Made by a program: the position numbers and the translations under genes
Origin: a virus
Taxonomy: Duplodnaviria > Caudoviricetes
IMG/VR virus record: IMGVR_UViG_3300005613_002794
Coordinates: 1-56,524 of that record
Length of the DNA: 56,524 nt
Strand: one strand, 5' to 3'
The notes under the pieces: generated by a model
What the model saw: only the letters and a program-made list of their open reading frames with translations
What the model was told of the DNA's origin: nothing
The model's database searches: none
Shown: positions 2,743-52,942 of the stretch, in pieces
How the letters are laid out: the number at the start of each line of letters is the position of its first letter
How positions within the stretch are numbered: the stretch's first letter is position 1

Positions 2743-3543
2743 ATGAAATATAACGTTTTTACTACAGCAAATAAATCATATTTTCCTTTTGTTGATATAC
2801 TTGTCAATTCTTTGACTGAGAATTGTGAAAATATTCAAAGGATCTATATTGCAGATTGCGGTCTGGGCGAATATCGTAAGTACCTTCAAGACAAAGAAAA
2901 TGTCTGCATCATGGATACTGATGTTACTGACGAATATGCTGGTGTTCATTCTGAAGGTTGGGTCAAAGCAACCCAACAGAAGACTAGAGTTCTGAGCAAA
3001 CTCCTGACGATGATGGACTTTGAAGACCCACTCATTATGATTGATAGTGATGTATGCGTCTTGAAAGATCTAGCACAGGTCATTGATAAGGAGTTTGATA
3101 TGCAAGTGACTACAATGAATACTGGTGGTCACACCCGTGCTGATGGCATCTTTATCAGTGAGATTGCAAGTTTTTTAGTTATCAATAATTCTGATCTCGG
3201 TAAGGTTTTTGTTCGCAATTGGATCGAGCAGATGGAAGAATTTGCTGAAAATGGTACTCCATTCCCTCATGAAACTCCTGCACTAAATATGACTTTGAAG
3301 AATAACAACTTCCTTAATATTGGTTATCTGAAAGAATTGGAAGTTTGTGCAGATCAAGAGTTGACTTATAATACTCTATCAGTACACTTTAAGAGTAATG
3401 GTCCCACAAAGAACAATCCTGTGGTAAACTTTGAAAAGAGAGTAATGTCTGTTGATAATAAAACTAAGACTGATCTTGATATTGACAAATACTTGAACGA
3501 AGAAATTTACGATCAATGGAGATCTGAATATGAAACTAACTGA
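2743..3543 (+). CDS. Nucleotide-diphospho-sugar transferase (GT-A fold)
   Basis: FTTANKSYF N-terminus, IMIDSDV DxD motif, SD GGA upstream. Confidence 0.65.
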   Translation: MKYNVFTTANKSYFPFVDILVNSLTENCENIQRIYIADCGLGEYRKYLQDKENVCIMDTDVTDEYAGVHSEGWVKATQQKTRVLSKLLTMMDFEDPLIMIDSDVCVLKDLAQVIDKEFDMQVTTMNTGGHTRADGIFISEIASFLVINNSDLGKVFVRNWIEQMEEFAENGTPFPHETPALNMTLKNNNFLNIGYLKELEVCADQELTYNTLSVHFKSNGPTKNNPVVNFEKRVMSVDNKTKTDLDIDKYLNEEIYDQWRSEYETN

Positions 3544-3715
3544 TATTCATACACAATTTAAGACTGATAAAGGAACTGCTCACGACTATATTGGCTGGTA
3601 TGAGCAGACATTCTCCGATCGTAGAACTGATGAAATGAATGTTCTTGAGATTGGTGTTCTATTTGGTGGTTCACTCAAGATGTGGGAGCATTACTTTGAG
3701 AACTCTAACATATAG
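3530..3715 (+). pseudogene. Truncated SAM-dependent methyltransferase
   Basis: TDKGTAHDY...VLEIGV..GGSL.MW motif I; TAG stop, then GIEDFS in frame, then a duplicated segment. Confidence 0.7.
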
Positions 3716-3732
3716 GGTATAGAAGATTTTTC

Positions 3733-3831
3733 TAAAGAAGAAACTTCTGATGGTTTACTAGCTCAAGAATTACATAATAAGTATAAATATTTGTATTCTC
3801 AAGCAACAATAGGACTTCATAGATGAGAGTA
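3733..3831 (+). repeat. 99-bp direct repeat of 2612..2710 (3' end of GT2 gene)
   Basis: Direct comparison shows 3 mismatches. Confidence 0.9.
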
Positions 3832-4527
3832 GCTGTTATAACAGGAATATTTTCTCCAAAATCAAAAATAGAGATTAAGTATTCTAACTATTTTGATGAA
3901 TATGATTATTTTTGCTACACTTGTGATAGTGAAAATATACAAGTAGATTCTAAAATTACTAGGATTATATTGCCTAATAAAGATTTAGATAAAAAATATT
4001 CAGCTAGAAGAGTTGGAAAAATTCCTAAAATATTATCTCATTTACTATTGCCTAGTTATGATATTTACATTTGGTGTGATGCTACTCATGAGCCTTGTAT
4101 AAATTTAAAAGAATTAAAAGATATTTTAGGAGATAATGATTGTGCGCTGTTTAAACACCCACATAGAATTTGTGTTTATGAAGAAGCAGCAGAGTGTTCA
4201 AGAAATAAGTTAGATCACCAAAACCTTATAGATGATACCGTTGTTTGGCTTTCTTCTATAGGGTTCCCTAGTAATTGTGGTTTATATGAAATGACATCGT
4301 TCATAAGAAAAAATAATAAAAAATGTAATAATGCTTTTTCTTTGTGGTATTCTGCTGTATCAAAACTGTCTTCAAGAGATCAGTTATCTTTTATGCCTTG
4401 TGCTTGTGAAACTAATATATCTATAAAATTATTAGAAGGGTCTGCTCAAATTTATTTTGGAGGTAATAAGTACTTCAAACAAATTAAACCGTCTTTGAGG
4501 ATTTCTGGAGTTGTGGATTATGTGTAG
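3823..4527 (+). CDS. DUF616-like glycosyltransferase
   Basis: VITGI, KILSH, IWCD, FKHPHR.CVYEE, SRDQLSF motifs. Confidence 0.75.
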   Translation: MRVAVITGIFSPKSKIEIKYSNYFDEYDYFCYTCDSENIQVDSKITRIILPNKDLDKKYSARRVGKIPKILSHLLLPSYDIYIWCDATHEPCINLKELKDILGDNDCALFKHPHRICVYEEAAECSRNKLDHQNLIDDTVVWLSSIGFPSNCGLYEMTSFIRKNNKKCNNAFSLWYSAVSKLSSRDQLSFMPCACETNISIKLLEGSAQIYFGGNKYFKQIKPSLRISGVVDYV

Positions 4528-7374: not shown

Positions 7375-8357
7375 AAAAAGCAATAGTATGTGGAGCGGGT
7401 GGTTTTATCGGAGGCCACATGGTAAGACGCCTTCTTGATGAAGGTTATAAAGTTGTAGCAGTGGACCTAAAACCAAAAAAAGATTGGTATCAAGTTCATG
7501 AAGGTACTTTGAATGAGGGACTATTCAACCTCACTCATAAAAACAATGTATATCCTCTAATACAGGAAAGCAGACCAGACGAACTCTACCAGTTCGCAGC
7601 GGATATGGGAGGAGCGGGTTATATATTTACTGGAGAGCATGACGCTGATGTAATGTATAACTCGGCTCAGATCAATCTGAATATAGTCAATGCCCTTAAA
7701 ATATACAGCAAGCACACTAAGGTTTTTTATTCATCATCGGCTTGCATCTACCCAGCGCACAACCAAACAGATCCAGACAATCCAAACTGCGAGGAAAGCT
7801 CTGCATATCCCGCTAACCCAGACTCGGAGTATGGGTGGGAGAAACTATTTTCTGAAAGGCTTTACCGTTCTTACGCTAGGAACTACGGACTAAATGTTCG
7901 TATAGCTAGATTCCACAATATCTTCGGTCCTTACGGTACATGGGATGGAGGAAAAGAAAAAGCTCCCGCTGCTATGTGTAGAAAAGCACTACAAGCAAGC
8001 GAGTCTATGGAGGTATGGGGACCAGGAACACAAACTCGATCCTTCCTGTACATTGATGAGTGTATTGAAGCTGTACGCAGGCTAATGGAGTCTGATGTAG
8101 AGACTGTAATCAATATCGGATCAGATGAAATGATTAGCATAAATAACCTAGCTCGTATGGCTCTAGACTTGGCTGGGAAACAAAATATAGAACTTGAAAA
8201 TATTGAGGGTCCAGTAGGAGTCATGGGGCGCTGTTCTGATAATAACCTTATTGAAGAAAAGCTTGGCTGGCGTCCTAGCGAGCCTCTTGTAGAGGGCATG
8301 AAGAAAACTCTCGATTGGATTGCAGAACAGATGGATGTGAGCTATAATAAAGCATGA
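7371..8357 (+). CDS. NAD-dependent epimerase (GDP-mannose 3,5-epimerase-like)
   Basis: GAGGFIG, AADMGGAG, YSSSACIY, YGWEK, EKAPAAMCRK. Confidence 0.9.
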   Translation: MKKAIVCGAGGFIGGHMVRRLLDEGYKVVAVDLKPKKDWYQVHEGTLNEGLFNLTHKNNVYPLIQESRPDELYQFAADMGGAGYIFTGEHDADVMYNSAQINLNIVNALKIYSKHTKVFYSSSACIYPAHNQTDPDNPNCEESSAYPANPDSEYGWEKLFSERLYRSYARNYGLNVRIARFHNIFGPYGTWDGGKEKAPAAMCRKALQASESMEVWGPGTQTRSFLYIDECIEAVRRLMESDVETVINIGSDEMISINNLARMALDLAGKQNIELENIEGPVGVMGRCSDNNLIEEKLGWRPSEPLVEGMKKTLDWIAEQMDVSYNKA

Positions 8358-28475: not shown

Positions 28476-28982
28476 ATGAGCACTTACGATTTCAAAGACG
28501 GTAACGGTCCTGTCCCTGCTCATCAACACACTAACCCTGATGGTTCTGTCGGTGGCTGGGTAGCTGATACTGCCACCGTCGCTGATACTGCCTACATCGG
28601 TCGTGATGCCAAGGTGTCTGGTGATGCCTTGGTGTATGATAATGCCTGGGTGTTTGATGATGCCTTGGTGTATGGTAATGCCAAGGTGTATGGTGATGCC
28701 AAGGTGTATGGTAATGCCTTGGTGTATGATAATGCCTGGGTGTTTGATGATGCCTTGGTGTATGGTAATGCCAAGGTGTATGGTGATGCCAAGGTGTATG
28801 GTAATGCTGAGGTTTTTGGTAATGCCAAGGTGTTTGGTAATGCCTTGGTGTATGATAATGCCTGGGTGTTTGATGATGCCTTGGTGTATGGTAATGCCAA
28901 GGTGTATGGTAATGCCAAGGTGTGCGGTCATGCCTGGGTGTTTGATGATTCTGTATTGAGTACAGGAACCCACAAGGAATAA
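28476..28982 (+). CDS. Hexapeptide-repeat (left-handed beta-helix) protein
   Basis: GPVPAHQHTNPDGSVGGWVADTA then VYGNAK-type repeats. Confidence 0.8.
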   Translation: MSTYDFKDGNGPVPAHQHTNPDGSVGGWVADTATVADTAYIGRDAKVSGDALVYDNAWVFDDALVYGNAKVYGDAKVYGNALVYDNAWVFDDALVYGNAKVYGDAKVYGNAEVFGNAKVFGNALVYDNAWVFDDALVYGNAKVYGNAKVCGHAWVFDDSVLSTGTHKE

Positions 28983-30993: not shown

Positions 30994-31215
30994 CTAGGGC
31001 CTAGAATCCTTGTAAAAAGGCGTCAGGGAGTTAGTGTAAGCTCGGACGGGGGAACATTCTTCGTCGCAATCGTTACACCAGTAAAAATCGTTGGCATAAT
31101 TGTTTTCGATACCTTCCTCCCAACCGTTATCTTCGTTCATTTCCAGGAGAACAGAAAACTCCTGGAGAACGTTATCGCTACCGCATTGGCTACAAGTCCA
31201 GCTATCTTTTTTCAT
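30994..31215 (-). CDS. Zinc-finger protein
   Basis: CSQCGSDNV...WCNDC. Confidence 0.65.
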   Translation of the reverse strand: MKKDSWTCSQCGSDNVLQEFSVLLEMNEDNGWEEGIENNYANDFYWCNDCDEECSPVRAYTNSLTPFYKDSRP

Positions 31216-31877
31216 CAGTGAGAAAGGAATCGAACGGTTTTTTTAGCAGTCCAGCACAATCCACAATCGGCGCAGGACTTTGCTTTAGCAGTCTGTTCGG
31301 GACAATCGAAAGAAGAACCCTCGAAAGATTCTTCCGCAGCATAAAGCCAACCCGTAATGGTATCGGCTTCGAAGTTGCCAGAATGGCGAATAACACAACG
31401 CTCGGAAAAGCGGTTATTCAGGAGCCAGATAGCCTTGCCGATCTTAGTTTGATCCTGGCGAGCAGTATATCCGAAGATCGCAAGTTTAGGATATTCCAGC
31501 AACATCTCTTGCCAGAACTCGACATAATCGGTGGAGTAGAAGTCTCCGAGAACATGCAAACGAATAAGGATTCCGTCCTTATGTTTCGCCATTAGTTTGG
31601 CGATATCGTCGCGCAGCTTATCCTCTAAACCGTTCACGTTGTAACGGTGTGCGAAGGGCATATTGTTACCATAACAGTCTGCCCAATGGTGACAGCTAGT
31701 GGGGCAAGTTTCCCGTTCAGTAAGGGTAAGGGAGAAGATACGCTTTCCCTTGTGCCGACCTTTCGAGACTTTCCAACCGAGCTTCTTGTTGTTCGAGCCA
31801 GGCTTGAGAACGTGGAGAGTGTCCCAGACAGACTTGATGGACTTGAGGTAGCGCGTGGTCAGGAGAGTGTTAGTCAT
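31215..31877 (-). CDS. GP88-like Cys-rich protein (leaderless)
   Basis: N.KLG, TCP.SC....CY, RLHV.GDF, YT, C..CGLC; own promoter. Confidence 0.7.
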   Translation of the reverse strand: MTNTLLTTRYLKSIKSVWDTLHVLKPGSNNKKLGWKVSKGRHKGKRIFSLTLTERETCPTSCHHWADCYGNNMPFAHRYNVNGLEDKLRDDIAKLMAKHKDGILIRLHVLGDFYSTDYVEFWQEMLLEYPKLAIFGYTARQDQTKIGKAIWLLNNRFSERCVIRHSGNFEADTITGWLYAAEESFEGSSFDCPEQTAKAKSCADCGLCWTAKKTVRFLSH

Positions 31878-31936
31878 GCGTGTATTATACCCGACTTTGG
31901 GCCAATGTCAAGCCTGGGAAGAAGTTTTTTTTCGAT

Positions 31937-32002
31937 CCTAAGTCCTTATCCCCCAAGGGTTTACGACCGCTTCGCGGGCGGCCGCGCCTGCCAATATGGC
32001 AG
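31937..32002 (+). repeat. Composite element copy 2 (CTGCCA..TGGCAG tail)
   Basis: CCTAAGTCCTTATCCCCCAAGGGTTTACGACCGCTTCGCGGGCGGC. Confidence 0.9.
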
Positions 32003-32015
32003 TCAAGGAAAAAAA

Positions 32016-32098
32016 TGGTGGAGGCGCAGGGAATCGAACCCTGGTCTTAACTAGTTCCCGTGTAGGGTCTTAGCTAGTCGAACAACCATATCGCCCCC
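32016..32098 (-). ncRNA. tmRNA tRNA-like-domain-only RNA (83 nt)
   Basis: GGGGGCG-ATATGGTTGTTCGAC...GAC-CAGGG-TTCGATT-CCCTG-CGCCTCC-ACCA; G3:U70 pair; no D stem; short closed helix 2. Confidence 0.8.
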
Positions 32099-32172
32099 GA
32101 AGGGTGGCGGAGGGTAGCCCTTCTGCTGTGGCCCACTTACCTCCAGCATGAGACAGACCCTCCGCCGATCAT

Positions 32173-32406
32173 TCACCGACCGCGACGGCCAAGGCCACCC
32201 TGGGTGGCGAGGTGAGCAGCAGAGGCACCGAGGCGCCGATCCCCGTCCATCGGGAGGAGACGCCGCAGAGATTTGTAAGCCTCAAGGCACTCCATCGCGT
32301 TGATGTTTGAGTTGGGATCATCGTAGAGGTCAGCGAAAAGCTCTCCAACTTGGACGGAGAGACCTTGAATCTTAGCCAACAGGGCGTCCTTGTTGAAATC
32401 TTTCAT
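32173..32406 (-). CDS. Leaderless hypothetical protein (array unit)
   Basis: TTGACA...GGTATAAT-6-ATG. Confidence 0.65.
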   Translation of the reverse strand: MKDFNKDALLAKIQGLSVQVGELFADLYDDPNSNINAMECLEAYKSLRRLLPMDGDRRLGASAAHLATQGGLGRRGR

Positions 32407-32459
32407 GGGTGTATTATACCGCAGGGAAGGGAGTTTGTCAAGGGGAAAAGGGAAGAAAC

Positions 32460-32603
32460 CTAGTAGGCGTCGTCGCACCAATCGTCGCAATCGGGATCAT
32501 CTTGCCAATCCTCACAGCCTTCCTCCTCGATGGCATAGAAGCCTTCCTCGATCATGCGGTAGAAGCTGTCGGCTTGCTCGTAGTAATCGTTTTCGTTTTC
32601 CAT
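32460..32603 (-). CDS. Very acidic 47-aa leaderless protein
   Basis: MENENDYYEQADSF...DDWCDDAY; own promoter. Confidence 0.65.
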   Translation of the reverse strand: MENENDYYEQADSFYRMIEEGFYAIEEEGCEDWQDDPDCDDWCDDAY

Positions 32604-32644
32604 GCGTGTATTATACCAGAAGAAGGCTCGTTTGTCAAGGGGAA

Positions 32645-32860
32645 TCAGAGAGAAAACGGAAGTTCGCAACCCTCGCGCTGCCAACGACTTGCAATGGCGC
32701 TCATGTGGTAGCTGGCAAGGGAATCGGGCATATCGAGCCCGTGGACGCGGTAGTCCGCACAGGCATCACGGTAGGGCATCCACAACAGCCCAAACCCATC
32801 GGCTTCAATGGCATCGAGGAGGCGAGAGAGCTTGCTGGGCAGGTGAGTCGTTTTCTTCAT
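32645..32860 (-). CDS. Leaderless hypothetical protein
   Basis: TGTGGTATAAT-6-ATG. Confidence 0.6.
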   Translation of the reverse strand: MKKTTHLPSKLSRLLDAIEADGFGLLWMPYRDACADYRVHGLDMPDSLASYHMSAIASRWQREGCELPFSL

Positions 32861-32919
32861 GTGTGTATTATACCACACTCTTGGGGGATTGCAGGCGTGT
32901 GGTGCGAAAAACTTTCTGC

Positions 32920-33002
32920 CCTAAGTCCTTGTCCCCCAAGGGTTTAGGACCGCTTCGCGGGCGGCGCGGATGCCCTAACCCTAGTATTGACAAGGGTTTA
33001 GG
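32920..33002 (+). repeat. Composite element copy 3 (two 11-7-11 sites, 54 bp apart)
   Basis: Core plus CCTAACCCTAG-TATTGAC-AAGGGTTTAGG. Confidence 0.9.
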
Positions 33003-33020
33003 TTCACCCACTAAAAAATA

Positions 33021-33280
33021 GCACTCAACCGCTAAAAACTAGCGGTTGAGTGCATCCGAGACGCCCCTTGCAAAGAGCTTCTCGGCCTGCCTCGGCCCTA
33101 GCCGCCTCAGCCAGTTTAATAAATCACGCACCGCTCTAGACTATCGCGCGCGACCCGATAGTGTTGCGGTGTGGAGGAGCTACCTCCGCGTGTCCCCCAA
33201 AGGGTGGGGCTTTCGCCTCGCTACCCTTCGGGACGCTCTGGGCCTAGTCACCTATTTAGCCTCGCCCAGTCGAGGATGGG
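33021..33280 (-). ncRNA. Candidate structured non-coding RNA
   Basis: Dense series of GC-rich hairpins and a 14-bp terminal stem. Confidence 0.4.
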
Positions 33281-33282
33281 AT

Positions 33283-33516
33283 TCACGCCCCCATGTAGCG
33301 GTGGTTCAATCCGCTCTTGGTCACGAACTGGCGGGAGTTGGCATAGTGCCGATTCCACGCGTGCTTGCAAGCGTTCAGCGTTCCCGTGTAGGTGTTTCGC
33401 TGTTCTTGTAGGTCGAAGATGGTGTAGACCGCATTTGCGGCGTTGCCCTTACCGACTCGAATCATGACCGCATTCTGGTTCGAACGCACGATGTTAGTGA
33501 TGATGAAGTTGATCAT
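33283..33516 (-). CDS. Hypothetical protein (SD-led, own promoter)
   Basis: AGGAGA SD; TTGACA..TATAAT at about 33562-33590. Confidence 0.65.
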   Translation of the reverse strand: MINFIITNIVRSNQNAVMIRVGKGNAANAVYTIFDLQEQRNTYTGTLNACKHAWNRHYANSRQFVTKSGLNHRYMGA

Positions 33517-33586
33517 TGTTTGATTTCTCCTATTGGAAATAAGGTTGGTGAACGAGCCCCCATTATACCATGGGGACCGTGTGCTG

Positions 33587-33961
33587 TCAAGCGTTGGCTT
33601 CGAAGTTCTTGACGATGTTGGCGATCTTGGCCTGGATGCGAGCGTCGATATCGCTCAGACGCTGCTCACCGCTGGAGAGGGTTTCCTCTGCCTCACTGAC
33701 TTCCATGTTGATCTTGTCGATCCAACGCTCATGCTTGGCGATGCGAGCCTGTCCCGACTGGGGACCGTTGCCAAGCACCTTCTTGGCCTCGCGGATCTGC
33801 TTCTGGATGATGGCCTTGTTCTCCAGCATGGTGGCAACGTCGGGGTTGCTGCTGGCGTCCTTCTTGGCTTGCTTGATGCGAAGACGCTCAAGCTTGGCCT
33901 CGGTTTCCGCGATGATCTCGGCAGGGGTGCGCTGGCCGCGCTTAGTGATGTTGTCTTTCAT
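33587..33961 (-). CDS. Coiled-coil leaderless protein
   Basis: TTGACT..GGTATAAT-6-ATG. Confidence 0.7.
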   Translation of the reverse strand: MKDNITKRGQRTPAEIIAETEAKLERLRIKQAKKDASSNPDVATMLENKAIIQKQIREAKKVLGNGPQSGQARIAKHERWIDKINMEVSEAEETLSSGEQRLSDIDARIQAKIANIVKNFEANA

Positions 33962-34015
33962 GGTCGTATTATACCTCAGGTTAGGGGTTCAGTCAACAAG
34001 AATCTGGAGAAAGTT

Positions 34016-34177
34016 TCAGATGTTGAGACCTTTGGAGCGAGCTTCCTCACGCCATGCGAGGTAGTCTTGGACCTCTTCGACAGTGTAACCATCTTCCCAG
34101 AACTCTTGGATCACCTCCGTATCCAGGTAGCCCAGGGTGGTGAAGAAGGCCTCTTGGTTCATATCGGTGTAGCTCAT
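34016..34177 (-). CDS. 53-aa acidic leaderless protein (not in ORF track)
   Basis: MSYTDMNQEAFFTTLGYLDTEVIQEFWEDGYTVEEVQDYLAWREEARSKGLNI; TATAAT-6-ATG. Confidence 0.65.
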   Translation of the reverse strand: MSYTDMNQEAFFTTLGYLDTEVIQEFWEDGYTVEEVQDYLAWREEARSKGLNI

Positions 34178-34236
34178 GCGCGTATTATATCACGGATCGA
34201 GGCCATTGCAAGCCTGGGAAGAAGTTTTCTTTCGAT

Positions 34237-34319
34237 CCTAAGTCTTTATCCCCCAAGGGTTTAGGACCGCTTCGCGGGCGGCGCGGATGCCCTAACCCTA
34301 GTATTGACAAGGGTTTAGG
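34237..34319 (+). repeat. Composite element copy 4 (two sites)
   Basis: Near-identical to copy 3. Confidence 0.9.
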
Positions 34320-34466
34320 ACCGTTTTCGGCAGTTTGCGTGCACACGAAATTTTGCGTGCGCACGGAATCTACCCGACTGCCGTTGAGCATGGGCCTACA
34401 TGTAGAGCCAAGCTATGCACGCACCGAAGAACAACACGTTGCACAGCACGCGGTAAGCACGACTCT

Positions 34467-34730
34467 TCAATAGATCAGTCCGCCGCTGCTGTTCAACCTC
34501 GCGACGTATTCTTCACGCAAGGCGTTGTGCTTGCGCGTGAGCACGGGGATCTCCTCAGCAGGGACGAAGGCCCCCCAGAGCGTGTTGACACCGTTGTCCA
34601 GGATCTCAAGATGCACGAGTTCGTTGGATTGAGGACGAACGGCGAACCAGATGTCTTGGATGAGGATGTTGGTAGGGATGTCGTGGATGGATGACATGAT
34701 CAGCATTTGGCTAGGTTGTTGTGTTTCCAT
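34467..34730 (-). CDS. Leaderless hypothetical protein (METQ...)
   Basis: TTGACA..TATAAT-GAGCAAC-ATG. Confidence 0.65.
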   Translation of the reverse strand: METQQPSQMLIMSSIHDIPTNILIQDIWFAVRPQSNELVHLEILDNGVNTLWGAFVPAEEIPVLTRKHNALREEYVARLNSSGGLIY

Positions 34731-34769
34731 GTTGCTCATTATACCACAAGGGACAGGGGTTGTCAAGGA

Positions 34770-34976
34770 CTAATCCGTGCAAACTTCAACGTACCAGCCG
34801 TCCAGCGCGGGCCAGGAATCGCGGATGCCAAGCCAAGCGCCGATTTCCTTGCGGACGAACTCGTACATCTCCTTTTTGGTGGAACCCTCTGGAACTACGA
34901 CAAAGTAGGTATCGTAGTAACGGCCAGATTGGATCTTTTCGAACGAAGAGACGTTCAGCTCTTTGCTTTCTTTCAT
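34770..34976 (-). CDS. Leaderless protein, paralog of 36565..36747
   Basis: FEKIQSGRYYDTY...GWYVEVCTD. Confidence 0.7.
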   Translation of the reverse strand: MKESKELNVSSFEKIQSGRYYDTYFVVVPEGSTKKEMYEFVRKEIGAWLGIRDSWPALDGWYVEVCTD

Positions 34977-35035
34977 GGGTACATTATACCACATCCTGGG
35001 CAAATGTCAAGGGGTCAGGTGGATCTTTTTGTCGT

Positions 35036-51963: not shown

Positions 51964-52942
51964 TTTCATTTATCATTTTGTATTCAAAATTATAGAGAGA
52001 GCTTTCATTCATAACCCAGGAGTGAAGGCTCTCTCCTTTTACATGAGCTTCGTTCCAATCTTTGCAGCCCTTAGGTGGGGAACAGACGTAGAAATCATCC
52101 ATTAGTCTTTCACGGCGAAGCACATCAAACCTCTGGCATCCCCTAACACCAGCGGTATCACTATCAAAGCCCAGGATAACCCTGCCATCAAATGTTGACA
52201 GGATCTCAGCCTGGCGAGGGCTAATGTAGTTCTTCATGGTGGCTGTAGCGTTCACACCTTGGAGCTGTAGGGACTTAGCATCCAAAGGCCCTTCGCATAC
52301 AACTACATAATCCTCGTCTTCGTTGTAAGGGTACAGGATCTCTGAGGGGTTGGGAGCAGACTCGATAGAAGGGTTTAGATACTTTGGTCTCTGGTCGCCC
52401 AAGGCTCGACCTTGGAAGTAGTATACAACACCATCTTTCTTGAATGGAATTATGATTCTGTTTTGGAACTTGCCATCCATGCACAGGTAGTATTCAGCAG
52501 CAGGGGGATCTTCTACAGAGAAAAGTTTTCTCTCAAACAATAGGCTCCATGCCCTCAAGACATCAGGATCGTCAGAGTGCCCAGACTCAATATTCAAAGG
52601 AATAAGCTTGCTAGTGTCCAACTCAAGCTGACGCTCCTCCTTGATTTGCTCTGGAATGTCCTCACCAATGAACTCAAAGTTCCTGATCATCAGATCCCTA
52701 TAAGCGCGGAAGTAGGGAATATCTTCAGCTTCGGAGTACAGTCTGGTGAAGTTACCTGAGCGCCCAGTCTTGAAACACTGCCACAAACCACTATCTACAT
52801 TGACGCTCATGTGCCTCTTCCAATCATTCCTGACGAAGAGTGATTCCATGATAAATTCCCGACCGTTGGAAGATAACCTTCCTTTATCAGAAAAATTTTG
52901 AGTAATGTAGTCTCTAATAAACTGAGGTGCTATAATGTACAT
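51950..52942 (-). CDS. DNA primase (TOPRIM)
   Basis: RIIIPF, FQGR, PKYLN, VCEGPLDA, FDSDTAG, KDWNE. Confidence 0.9.
   Translation of the reverse strand: MYIIAPQFIRDYITQNFSDKGRLSSNGREFIMESLFVRNDWKRHMSVNVDSGLWQCFKTGRSGNFTRLYSEAEDIPYFRAYRDLMIRNFEFIGEDIPEQIKEERQLELDTSKLIPLNIESGHSDDPDVLRAWSLLFERKLFSVEDPPAAEYYLCMDGKFQNRIIIPFKKDGVVYYFQGRALGDQRPKYLNPSIESAPNPSEILYPYNEDEDYVVVCEGPLDAKSLQLQGVNATATMKNYISPRQAEILSTFDGRVILGFDSDTAGVRGCQRFDVLRRERLMDDFYVCSPPKGCKDWNEAHVKGESLHSWVMNESSLYNFEYKMINEINLL

Follow-up and report, generated by a model that had tools for sequence, protein, structure and literature searches.

A miniature tmRNA gene in a phage genome

The window (the whole stretch of DNA that was analysed, 56,524 nucleotides long) comes from the IMG/VR virus record IMGVR_UViG_3300005613_002794, which is about 51% complete according to CheckV. 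It carries genes for a terminase, a portal protein, a UvsX-like recombinase, a helicase, a primase, MazG and a 2OG-Fe(II) oxygenase, along with several HNH endonucleases. Neither an integrase nor an SmpB gene was found in the window. By its gene content, the phage looks large and of the virulent type. When the terminase was compared with those of cultured phages, the best identities (31-33%) were to T4-like terminases, and the 2.5-kb region around the RNA described here had no DNA match among cultured phages.

At 32016-32098 on the minus strand, we observed an 83-nt element with the form of a tmRNA reduced to its tRNA-like domain. The features of the element and of its surroundings, in the order of transcription, are given below.

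32413..32441, minus strand: perfect sigma-70-type promoter (TTGACA-17-TATAAT), the nearest upstream of the RNA (about 310 nt); a 12/12 consensus match only
32173..32379, minus strand: candidate small ORF of about 67 codons, with a putative TTG start after AAGGA, between promoter and RNA (ORF frame)
32106..32166, minus strand: leader hairpin, ending 7 nt before G1 (-38.1 kcal/mol, z -3.65, 0/200 shuffles as stable)
32016..32098, minus strand: mini-tmRNA gene, 83 nt, a tRNA-like domain in which a short hairpin closes helix 2 (RF00023, 55.6 bits; our own model R1, 65.4 bits)
32092..32098, minus strand: 5' strand of the acceptor stem, GGGGGCG, with G3 paired with U as the G3:U70 alanine identity pair (sequence and RF00023)
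32077..32091, minus strand: D-loop analog AUAUGGUUGUUCGAC, without a D stem and with a 2-nt insertion relative to the Rfam consensus (RF00023 alignment)
32048..32076, minus strand: capped helix 2, made up of the 6-bp helix 2a UAGCUA/UAGUUA, an internal loop AGA/AAC, a 3-bp distal helix CCC/GGG and a 5-nt apical loop (fold)
32027..32043, minus strand: T arm CAGGG-UUCGAUU-CCCUG (sequence and RF00023)
32016..32026, minus strand: 3' strand of the acceptor stem CGCCUCC, discriminator A and encoded CCA (sequence and RF00023)
32009..32015, minus strand: run of 7 T right behind ACCA, a possible terminator tail (sequence)
31884..31911, minus strand: next perfect sigma-70-type promoter, predicted to drive the GP88-like ORF 31215-31877 (consensus match)

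The original prediction had read a tRNA-like domain without a tag reading frame at this place. The bases that it quoted were identical to those at 32016-32098, and every hallmark that it named (G3:U70, discriminator A, CCA, a stemless D loop ending TTCGAC, GAC and helix 2a) was present by sequence and by alignment to RF00023, the Rfam tmRNA model. This model matched the element end to end with 55.6 bits (E 3.8e-19), which is over the gathering score of 47. The alignment spans model positions 1-374, with 306 internal positions reduced to 13 nt, and both halves of the domain are aligned: first the 5' acceptor strand, the D-loop analog and the beginning of helix 2, and then, beyond the 13 nt, the returning strand of helix 2, the T arm, the 3' acceptor strand and ACCA. 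The acceptor stem has 7 bp, the D-loop analog is unpaired and ends in UUCGAC, and GAC precedes the T arm. The body between the strands of helix 2a is 17 nt long, with no room for the pseudoknots PK1-PK4. The mRNA-like domain, the resume codon and the tag frame are likewise absent from the element, as judged by the 13 nt that stand for 306 model positions and by the lack of an ARAGORN tag.

Our own covariance model, built from eight other sequences, gave the element 65.4 bits and found no second copy in the whole window at E<=0.01. ARAGORN, which requires a tag reading frame to detect a tmRNA, called neither a tmRNA nor a tRNA at the element, and the only tRNAs that it called in the window were three elsewhere (Asn, Arg and Cys).

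Three other assignments were evaluated and rejected. The element is not a tRNA (RF00005, e.g. tRNA-Ala), since ARAGORN makes no tRNA call here, the tmRNA model wins within the tRNA clan, and helix 2 is interrupted by an internal loop and capped by 5 nt. It is not of the mitochondrial tmRNA type (RF02544), as the gene is phage-borne and its 5' acceptor strand precedes the 3' strand, i.e. it is not permuted. An attP-type ssrA fragment was also rejected, as both halves of the element are present and covary, and the window has no integrase. We conclude that the window element is a genuine miniature-tmRNA gene, comprising the tRNA-like domain and the first 10 or so bp of helix 2, with a small loop at the end.

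When folded alone, the element had an energy of -28.3 kcal/mol (z -1.57), and 13 of 200 shuffles were as stable. As the fold of the single sequence is not unusual, the case rests on homology and covariation, and not on thermodynamics. The window copy also departs from the family consensus. It has AGAC for GGAC, so that in the RF00023 alignment the basal pair of helix 2a is a C-A mismatch. GGAC is present in its closest relatives, L069 and L073, and the 2-nt insertion in the D-loop analog is found in both of them as well. With AGAC in this place, the binding of SmpB could be weaker for the window copy.

Ends, flanks and promoter context of the RNA

When the window element was compared with L069 and L073, conservation began a few nt before G1 and stopped exactly at ACCA, and the flanks were unalignable. 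Within the element there were compensatory changes (acceptor C6-G to U6-A, and C-G to G-C in the T stem). The leader of L069 has a hairpin at the same distance with a different stem sequence (z -4.52), and that of L073 also has a stable fold; the folds of the L037 and Jojan60 leaders were not significant. Once RNase P has cut, the leader hairpin may shield the upstream mRNA at its 3' end.

The region around the RNA has a GC content of 52-57%, as against 42.8% for the window, and 14 promoter-like sites as against 5.4 (sd 2.5) in shuffles. Six perfect (12/12) consensus matches to sigma-70-type promoters lie on the strand of the RNA within 31884-35010. As one of these (31884..31911) lies just downstream, the transcription unit of the RNA is likely to end there. 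The RNA is surrounded by small ORFs without assigned function: the one at 32173..32379 had no Pfam match, and the downstream ORF matches GP88 and PHROG 2554 alone, neither of them of known function. The sigma-70 promoter context fits a region of the early type. A search of sequencing runs with window positions 31400-32800 gave a best word share of 0.08, with no RNA run listed.

The RNA is the last part of a short transcription unit, with a leader hairpin before it and a T run behind it. One would also see this if it were tRNA-like punctuation, i.e. an RNase P site, a stabiliser of the transcript end or a terminator of an early operon, with no role after cleavage. tRNA genes adjoin the element in other phages, which is in keeping with this. 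However, the T run is not kept in L069 or L073, and inside tRNA arrays an extra mark would be redundant. Moreover, the conserved G3:U70, A73, tmRNA-type D-loop analog and two-part helix 2 are needless for recognition by RNase P. We therefore consider punctuation to be very improbable.

Related elements form a large phage RNA family

We scanned viral contigs with two patterns. The first was degenerate, with 30-60 nt between the halves of the tRNA-like domain and with G3:U70, A73 and CCA fixed, and it gave at least 119 stretches. Together with L001 and L002, these made up a first set of at least 121 loci and at least 102 unique sequences. On curation of the 102 unique sequences among the matches listed, 83 were kept. 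Eighteen were dropped for having fewer than 7/7 acceptor pairs (among them a true tRNA-Asp and a separate class of 74 nt), and one because it was a tRNA-Cys by ARAGORN; two of the dropped sequences (L025 and L116) were later regained by the covariance model.

The second pattern used internal motifs only (the end of the D-loop analog, GGAC and the T loop), leaving the acceptor stem and the tail free. It gave at least 120 stretches, mostly new. Among the matches listed there were 109 unique cores, of which three were chance matches without a T stem or a model hit, and one, missed by the offset used, was a true member whose T loop has 8 nt. The 105 cores kept correspond to 106 unique full sequences (again among the matches listed), with lengths of 78-89 nt and a mode of 82, and only 30 of these fit the first pattern. 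The two sets pooled contain at least 159 unique sequences of about 80 nt, from about 200 viral contigs.

The covariance model was built from eight members of uniform geometry. At E<1e-5 it matched the window element (65.4 bits), Stenotrophomonas virus Jojan60 (72.2), Mycobacterium phage DS6A (58.8) and 81 others. It also matched 97 of the 100 new loci searched (the second set has 103; three were left out). RF00023 called the short form at its exact ends at 13 of the 13 carrier loci scanned (48.2-81.1 bits). Over eight elements, ARAGORN made longer 'tmRNA' or permuted 'tmRNA*' calls. These were rejected, with Rfam calling nothing but the short form at the six of the eight that were scanned, and the additional stretch of L037 and L094 contained a Pistol ribozyme. 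A 332-nt sub-threshold tmRNA match beside the element in G018 (25.5 bits) overlaps a tRNA-Met called by ARAGORN and was taken as spurious.

Among cultured phages, BLAST with the 83 nt found one near-full-length match, in Jojan60. Its element is 83 nt long (RF00023, 61.8 bits), lies between four tRNA genes, which it directly follows, and the primase gene, and is unannotated, being partly under a 'hypothetical protein' CDS. All three helices differ from those of the window element through compensating changes. BLAST with four family members at E<=1e-6 gave nothing useful, the limit being too strict for 80-nt queries. On repeating these searches at E<=10, two of the eight candidates taken further were full members by the family model. 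The Streptomyces phages BRock (61.9 bits) and LuckySocke (58.3 bits) have, by this model, unannotated 81-nt copies inside tRNA arrays, with G3:U70 and A73 present and CCA not encoded. The remaining six of the eight candidates scored 19-32 bits and were rejected as fragments only. GiJojo and pSt2308 also match by BLAST, and are candidates by BLAST alone.

When bacterial genome contigs were scanned with the same pattern, we obtained at least 120 stretches, most of which were tRNA-Ala genes or the 3' portions of regular tmRNA genes; on visual inspection, about four of those listed (L174, L184, L196 and L207) resemble the phage form. The full-text literature searched contained no account of tag-less tmRNAs as a widespread family in phages. 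The mini-tmRNAs are a large, mostly unannotated phage RNA family.

The helices of the family covary

A MAFFT alignment of 72 sequences had staggered 5' ends, and the pair counts were taken from model-based alignments instead. In the first set (84 sequences), 98.1% of the cells were paired, in comparison to 66.9% (sd 0.8) in shuffles, and none of 500 shuffles reached the observed value. When the partners were slid by 1-3 columns, only 50-57% of the cells were paired. Changes on both sides were seen for 15 of the 19 pairs, in 498 cells, and all seven modelled pairs of helix 2a covaried. The covariation of helix 2a carries the most weight, as helix 2 played no part in the selection by pattern or by curation.

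The alignment of the first set was fitted to the model, and its acceptor stem had been selected by curation. In view of these caveats, the test was repeated on the independent second set. Here, with 77 distinct sequences, 98.3% of the cells were paired in comparison to 65.5% in shuffles, and 16 of the 19 pairs had changed on both sides. The T-stem pairs covaried with 100% of the cells paired. Covariation among phage homologs, which the original prediction had proposed as a check, was thus seen in both sets.

The body folds as a two-part helix in 150 of the 159 unique sequences among the matches listed. The outer helix is mostly of 5-9 bp, the internal loop is often A-rich, the distal helix is mostly of 2-4 bp and the apical loop mostly of 4-6 nt, so that the window body (6 bp, AGA/AAC, 3 bp and 5 nt) is typical of the family. 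That helix 2 is capped, with no pseudoknots or mRNA-like domain, is therefore agreed upon by the RF00023 alignment, the family fold and the covariation.

The alanine identity elements are fixed

The second set, in which the acceptor stem was unconstrained, allowed us to examine the identity elements for alanine. Among the 106 sequences of the matches listed, G3:U70 was present in 105 (the one other had G:C) and the discriminator A in all 106. G1:C72 was found in 106/106 and G2:C71 in 104/106. Positions 4-7 of the acceptor stem showed 4-6 pair types each, although the stem itself was intact, with 7/7 pairs in 104 sequences and 6/7 in the other two. In the alignment of this set, all 77 distinct sequences had both G3:U70 and A73. 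CCA was encoded in only 37 of the 106, and the maturation of the relatives would hence need the CCA-adding enzyme of the host. As G3:U70 and the discriminator A are fixed and their neighbours vary freely, charging with alanine looks to be under selection.

These observations bear on the possibility that the RNA is a pure SmpB sponge, which would sequester the SmpB of the host, and possibly its AlaRS or EF-Tu as well, off the ribosome, with charging being irrelevant. A sponge would suit carriers in which no SmpB of their own was found (0/48 records, see below), and the strong early-type promoter would permit a high copy number. However, to our knowledge the binding of SmpB requires neither G3:U70 nor A73, and it is these that are fixed (105/106 and 106/106 among the matches listed, and 77/77 in the second-set alignment) while the neighbouring pairs vary. 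We consider it unlikely that the RNA is only a sponge.

Carrier genomes and the neighbourhood of the elements

We also evaluated the virus records that hold elements among the matches listed (the carrier records; L038 and L073 were left out of the search for partner proteins). With the tmRNA model, a full-length tmRNA over the cut-off was found in 0 of 48 carrier records, and the best match was the short form (69-99 nt) in all 48, being over the cut-off in 45. The original prediction had held that full-length tmRNAs at this locus in relatives would point to a recent deletion, and what the relatives carry is the short form. An SmpB gene was found in 0/48 carrier records, including 0/11 of the virus records that are at least 90% complete. 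A peptidyl-tRNA hydrolase was found in 0/49 and an RF-1/ArfB-like ORF in 1/49. A tyrosine integrase was present in 6/49 (five over the cut-off), and in 2/11 of those at least 90% complete. Since virus records may be fragments, absence in any one record is weak evidence, although the overall pattern is clear. With no SmpB of their own found (0/48), the carriers would rely on host factors.

Integrative elements commonly bear 3' pieces of ssrA. The mini-tmRNA could then be a relic, either of a recently deleted full-length phage tmRNA or of an attP-type fragment of host ssrA used for integration. Mycobacteriophage Shandong1 does have a 3' ssrA fragment beside its integrase, and DS6A is temperate. 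However, the Shandong1 fragment scores 19.2 bits with the family model, and such attP-like fragments score 19-32 bits as compared with 58-97 bits for members. The members have both halves, which covary, and a narrow length (78-89 nt, mode 82, in 106 sequences among the matches listed). In addition, there was no full-length tmRNA over the cut-off in the 48 carrier records, and an integrase in only 6 of 49 and none in the window. The relic reading is thus largely refuted, and we give it hardly any credence.

We then counted the tRNA genes at 199 carrier loci, leaving out seven ARAGORN calls that lie on the elements themselves. Any tRNA gene was present at 42 loci, within 500 nt of the element at 36 and within 200 nt at 34. 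In the 36 loci with a tRNA within 500 nt, 94 tRNAs were on the same strand as the element and one was on the opposite strand.

Phage tRNA arrays have been linked to the evasion of tRNA-cleaving defences, and the elements are found near tRNA genes, often in tRNA arrays (36/199 loci among the matches listed). This would be consistent with a decoy or inhibitor of host nucleases or defence sensors that recognize tmRNA- or tRNA-like shapes (RNase R, anticodon-type nucleases or the SmpB-like domains of CoCoNuT systems), with no part in ribosome rescue. Two reports lend this some weight. In one, the phage anti-CRISPR AcrIIIA1 was purified together with tmRNA fragments of about 90 nt that cover the tRNA-like domain, and RNAs of this sort bind RNase R (PMC11662646). 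In the other, tmRNA is the predicted ligand of the SmpB-like domains found in CoCoNuT defence systems (PMC11090510). However, a decoy has no obvious need for an invariant alanine identity set, no nuclease or Acr gene is consistently adjacent, and the neighbours in the window have no informative family. We find this reading improbable.

Proposed function

The reading that we favour, and consider somewhat probable, is that the RNA, charged with alanine and dependent on SmpB, mimics host tmRNA and competes with it, and so prevents tagging. The RNA would form the 3' portion of a short transcript made early from the host-type promoter, and would be released in the manner of a tRNA, by an RNase P cut and 3' trimming. 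Host AlaRS would charge it with alanine. Host SmpB and EF-Tu would then bind it and bring it to ribosomes stalled on broken mRNAs, where it would compete with host tmRNA. The tmRNA-type D-loop analog and the base of helix 2, both retained here, are the parts that hold SmpB. The nascent chain would be accepted by the RNA and would gain one alanine at most; as the mini-tmRNA has no message, no degradation tag would be added. At the same time, host SmpB would be pulled off the real tmRNA. The net effect would be that normal trans-translation (tagging and proteolysis) is blocked or diverted during infection. For the later release of the ribosome, the candidates are ArfB, ArfA-RF2, drop-off with Pth, or a second round with the real tmRNA. 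Against the proposal, some phages require the activity of host tmRNA.

Two published results bear on this proposal. In vitro, peptidyl transfer to a tmRNA consisting of the tRNA-like domain (TLD) only was blocked by kirromycin, according to PMC3895274 (citing Shimizu and Ueda 2006), which indicates that a TLD-only RNA can accept peptide and needs EF-Tu in order to do so. A molecule similar to the TLD-only form of DS6A inhibits E. coli tmRNA (PMC4131195 and PMC11915505, both citing Mao et al. 2009, in the parts available), and this inhibition was reportedly independent of chargeability (PMC4131195). Of the three candidate functions in the original prediction (titration of SmpB, rescue without tagging and an RNase decoy), it is the first that this result on a similar molecule supports. 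Inhibition alone would thus need no entry into the ribosome, and it is only the conservation of the identity elements that argues for the on-ribosome part of the mechanism.

A broader version, which we put forward tentatively and regard as rather doubtful, is that the family is a widespread phage counter-measure. The charged RNA, borne by SmpB and EF-Tu, would take stalled ribosomes before host tmRNA does. Phage proteins being made when defences have cut mRNAs or tRNAs would then escape tagging, and tag-independent host factors would free the ribosome. If this were true, the hijacking of ribosome rescue would be a general phage strategy, comparable to tRNA arrays. Such probability as remains falls to other roles, e.g. 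that of a non-ribosomal donor of alanine.

The invariant alanine identity set argues for charging and for contact with the ribosome. If the alanine-charged mimic is what these RNAs are, phages commonly tamper with trans-translation, and the role of ribosome rescue in infection becomes testable in tractable phage-host pairs.

Comparison with known systems

The original prediction had pointed to the mitochondrial tmRNAs of jakobids as the parallel. As described in the available text of PMC11915505, mitochondrial tmRNAs (of jakobids and oomycetes) are without a tag frame, are usually permuted, and have their SmpB encoded elsewhere. The parallel holds to the extent that the mitochondrial form (RF02544) is likewise a tmRNA homolog without a tag frame; it does not extend to the gene order, since the organellar form is usually circularly permuted while the window gene and the phage form are in standard order. 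Further, unlike in mitochondria, the SmpB partner of the phage form would be that of the host, and the RNA may therefore act against the cell and not for it.

Full-length phage tmRNAs are known from the mycobacteriophage Bxz1 group and from Bacillus phage G (PMC4131195, in its available part), and a two-piece ssrA is known from the marine phage Melnitz (PMC9004378). Like the mini form, the full-length phage tmRNAs are phage-borne ssrA homologs, often near tRNA genes or early promoters. However, they keep the mRNA-like domain and the tag, and ARAGORN finds them; the mini form has neither, and ARAGORN misses the window copy.

The acrIIIA1-RNAs, which serve a phage against host nucleases, are pieces of host tmRNA cut by a phage protein, whereas the mini-tmRNA has a gene of its own in the phage, and nothing like AcrIIIA1 was seen beside the window element. 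TLD constructs of tmRNA have been used in the laboratory for co-crystals with SmpB. These share the boundaries of the mini form in principle (helix 2 closed by a loop) but are engineered, while the mini form is natural.

The direct precedent, which the original prediction had overlooked, is Mycobacterium phage DS6A (entry 'Phage__Mycobacterium.9' of the tmRNA Website), listed as a 'TLD only' tmRNA by Hudson, Lau and Williams 2014 (PMC4131195) and in PMC11915505. We located its element at record positions 28478-28560. Like the window element, it is phage-encoded, in one piece, in standard order and 83 nt long. It has G3:U70, A73, a D-loop analog ending in CGAC, helix 2a, an A-rich internal loop, a short capped distal helix and the T arm, and the same family model matches both (58.8 bits for DS6A and 65.4 for the window), although with RF00023 it reaches only 43.2 bits, below the cut-off. 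The window fits the DS6A-type case in that it is a carrier in which no full-length tmRNA or SmpB of its own was found (the window record being about 51% complete). The two differ in that DS6A is temperate and of high GC and its element ends in ACUA, whereas the window phage looks virulent and encodes CCA.

Given the DS6A precedent, the kind is not new. In the parts of PMC4131195 and PMC11915505 available, DS6A is treated as a single oddity. The 2025 tmRNA database (PMC11915505, in the same part) holds 97,179 unique sequences, of which 79 are from phages and 9, over all taxa, are 'standard, no CDS'; further phage forms may stand in its supplementary tables. Truncated forms were rejected by its pipeline, as were sequences in which the CCA-tail positions were lacking. 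As far as the available text of these sources goes, then, the tag-less phage tmRNA is on record as the single case of DS6A, which is here one of at least 159 unique sequences, with unannotated copies in Stenotrophomonas and Streptomyces phages. Together, these comparisons have led us to conclude that the window RNA belongs to a kind already known from one phage, DS6A, and that what is new is the scale of the family and the evidence for selection on charging.

Promoters and ribozymes around the mini-tmRNA

We observed that the minus strand of the window carries six perfect TTGACA-16/17-TATAAT promoters at 31884-35010, all on this single strand and within about 3 kb. The small ORFs of this stretch have no family match, and its GC content is 52-57%, as compared to 42.8% for the whole window. 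The stretch looks like an early takeover region driven by the host RNA polymerase.

A Pistol ribozyme was also seen in the window, on the same strand as the mini-tmRNA and 1.1 kb upstream of it. A scan of 13 carrier loci (L-numbers; L069 carries a close relative of the window copy) revealed self-cleaving ribozymes in five of them. This is a raw count without a baseline, with no enrichment claimed, and it includes both of the near-identical loci L037 and L094.

Self-cleaving ribozymes in the window and in carrier loci
Window 33223-33275, minus strand: Pistol, 38.5 bits (cut-off 34.5), final helix unaligned
L037 6093-6154, minus strand: Pistol, 106 nt upstream of the mini-tmRNA
L094 11838-11899, minus strand: Pistol, 106 nt upstream of the mini-tmRNA
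L069 6292-6379, minus strand: Pistol
L008 974-1038: Hammerhead II
L020 5839-5903: Hammerhead II

Other RNAs recovered by the searches

A separate class of RNAs, of 69-75 nt, was found among the matches listed, in bacterial MAG contigs (L125, L127, L134, L150, L152, L153, L165, L179, L208, L224 and others) and in viral loci (L034, L065, L095, L098 and L119). Many members, among these same listed matches, come from Patescibacteria/CPR MAGs. The RNAs of this class have a 7-bp acceptor stem, with G3:U70 and ACCA imposed by the search pattern. They also have a tiny D arm (GCAGGTTTGC), a T arm, and a single further stem whose 7-nt loop resembles an anticodon loop (CTACGAA, CTGCGAA and TTGAGAC, for example). 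ARAGORN names only a few of them (as Ser or Leu). These may be reduced tRNA-like molecules that combine alanine identity with non-alanine anticodons.

The first pattern, which fixed G3:U70, A73 and CCA, also matched a 74-nt class at at least 11 viral loci: L028 (11517-11590) and the similar L031, L032, L046, L052, L053, L059, L067, L082, L103 and L110. This class has a TTGCAA loop, and only four of seven positions pair in the assumed acceptor register. In the Rfam scan, which covered L028 alone among these loci, the 74-nt RNA was not called as tmRNA. L028 also has a GOLLD RNA (7549-8012, 201 bits) and tRNA genes by the dozen.

Individual carriers and cultured phages

One viral contig (L280) carries two mini-tmRNA copies separated by 1.2 kb, and an RF-1 domain ORF was found in a sole carrier record, G015 (the contig of L049), about 43 kb from the mini-tmRNA. 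In size, this ORF matches the ArfB-type tag-independent ribosome rescue factor.

L280 5-84, plus strand: mini-tmRNA, 42.6 bits
L280 1317-1395, plus strand: mini-tmRNA, 57.0 bits
G015 52363-52551, minus strand: RF-1 domain ORF, 120 aa, 67.5 bits

In the cultured Stenotrophomonas phage Jojan60 (L002, ON045087.1, region 3295-4083), the mini-tmRNA is unannotated, and a 'hypothetical protein' CDS overlaps its first 29 nt. The public record places the four tRNA features on the strand opposite to the cmscan and ARAGORN calls.

Mycobacterium phage Shandong1 (L349) carries at 580-652 a piece of a tmRNA gene, from its 3' part, which precedes the tyrosine integrase gene by about 90 nt, as is classic for attP. 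This attP-type fragment contrasts usefully with the full mini form.
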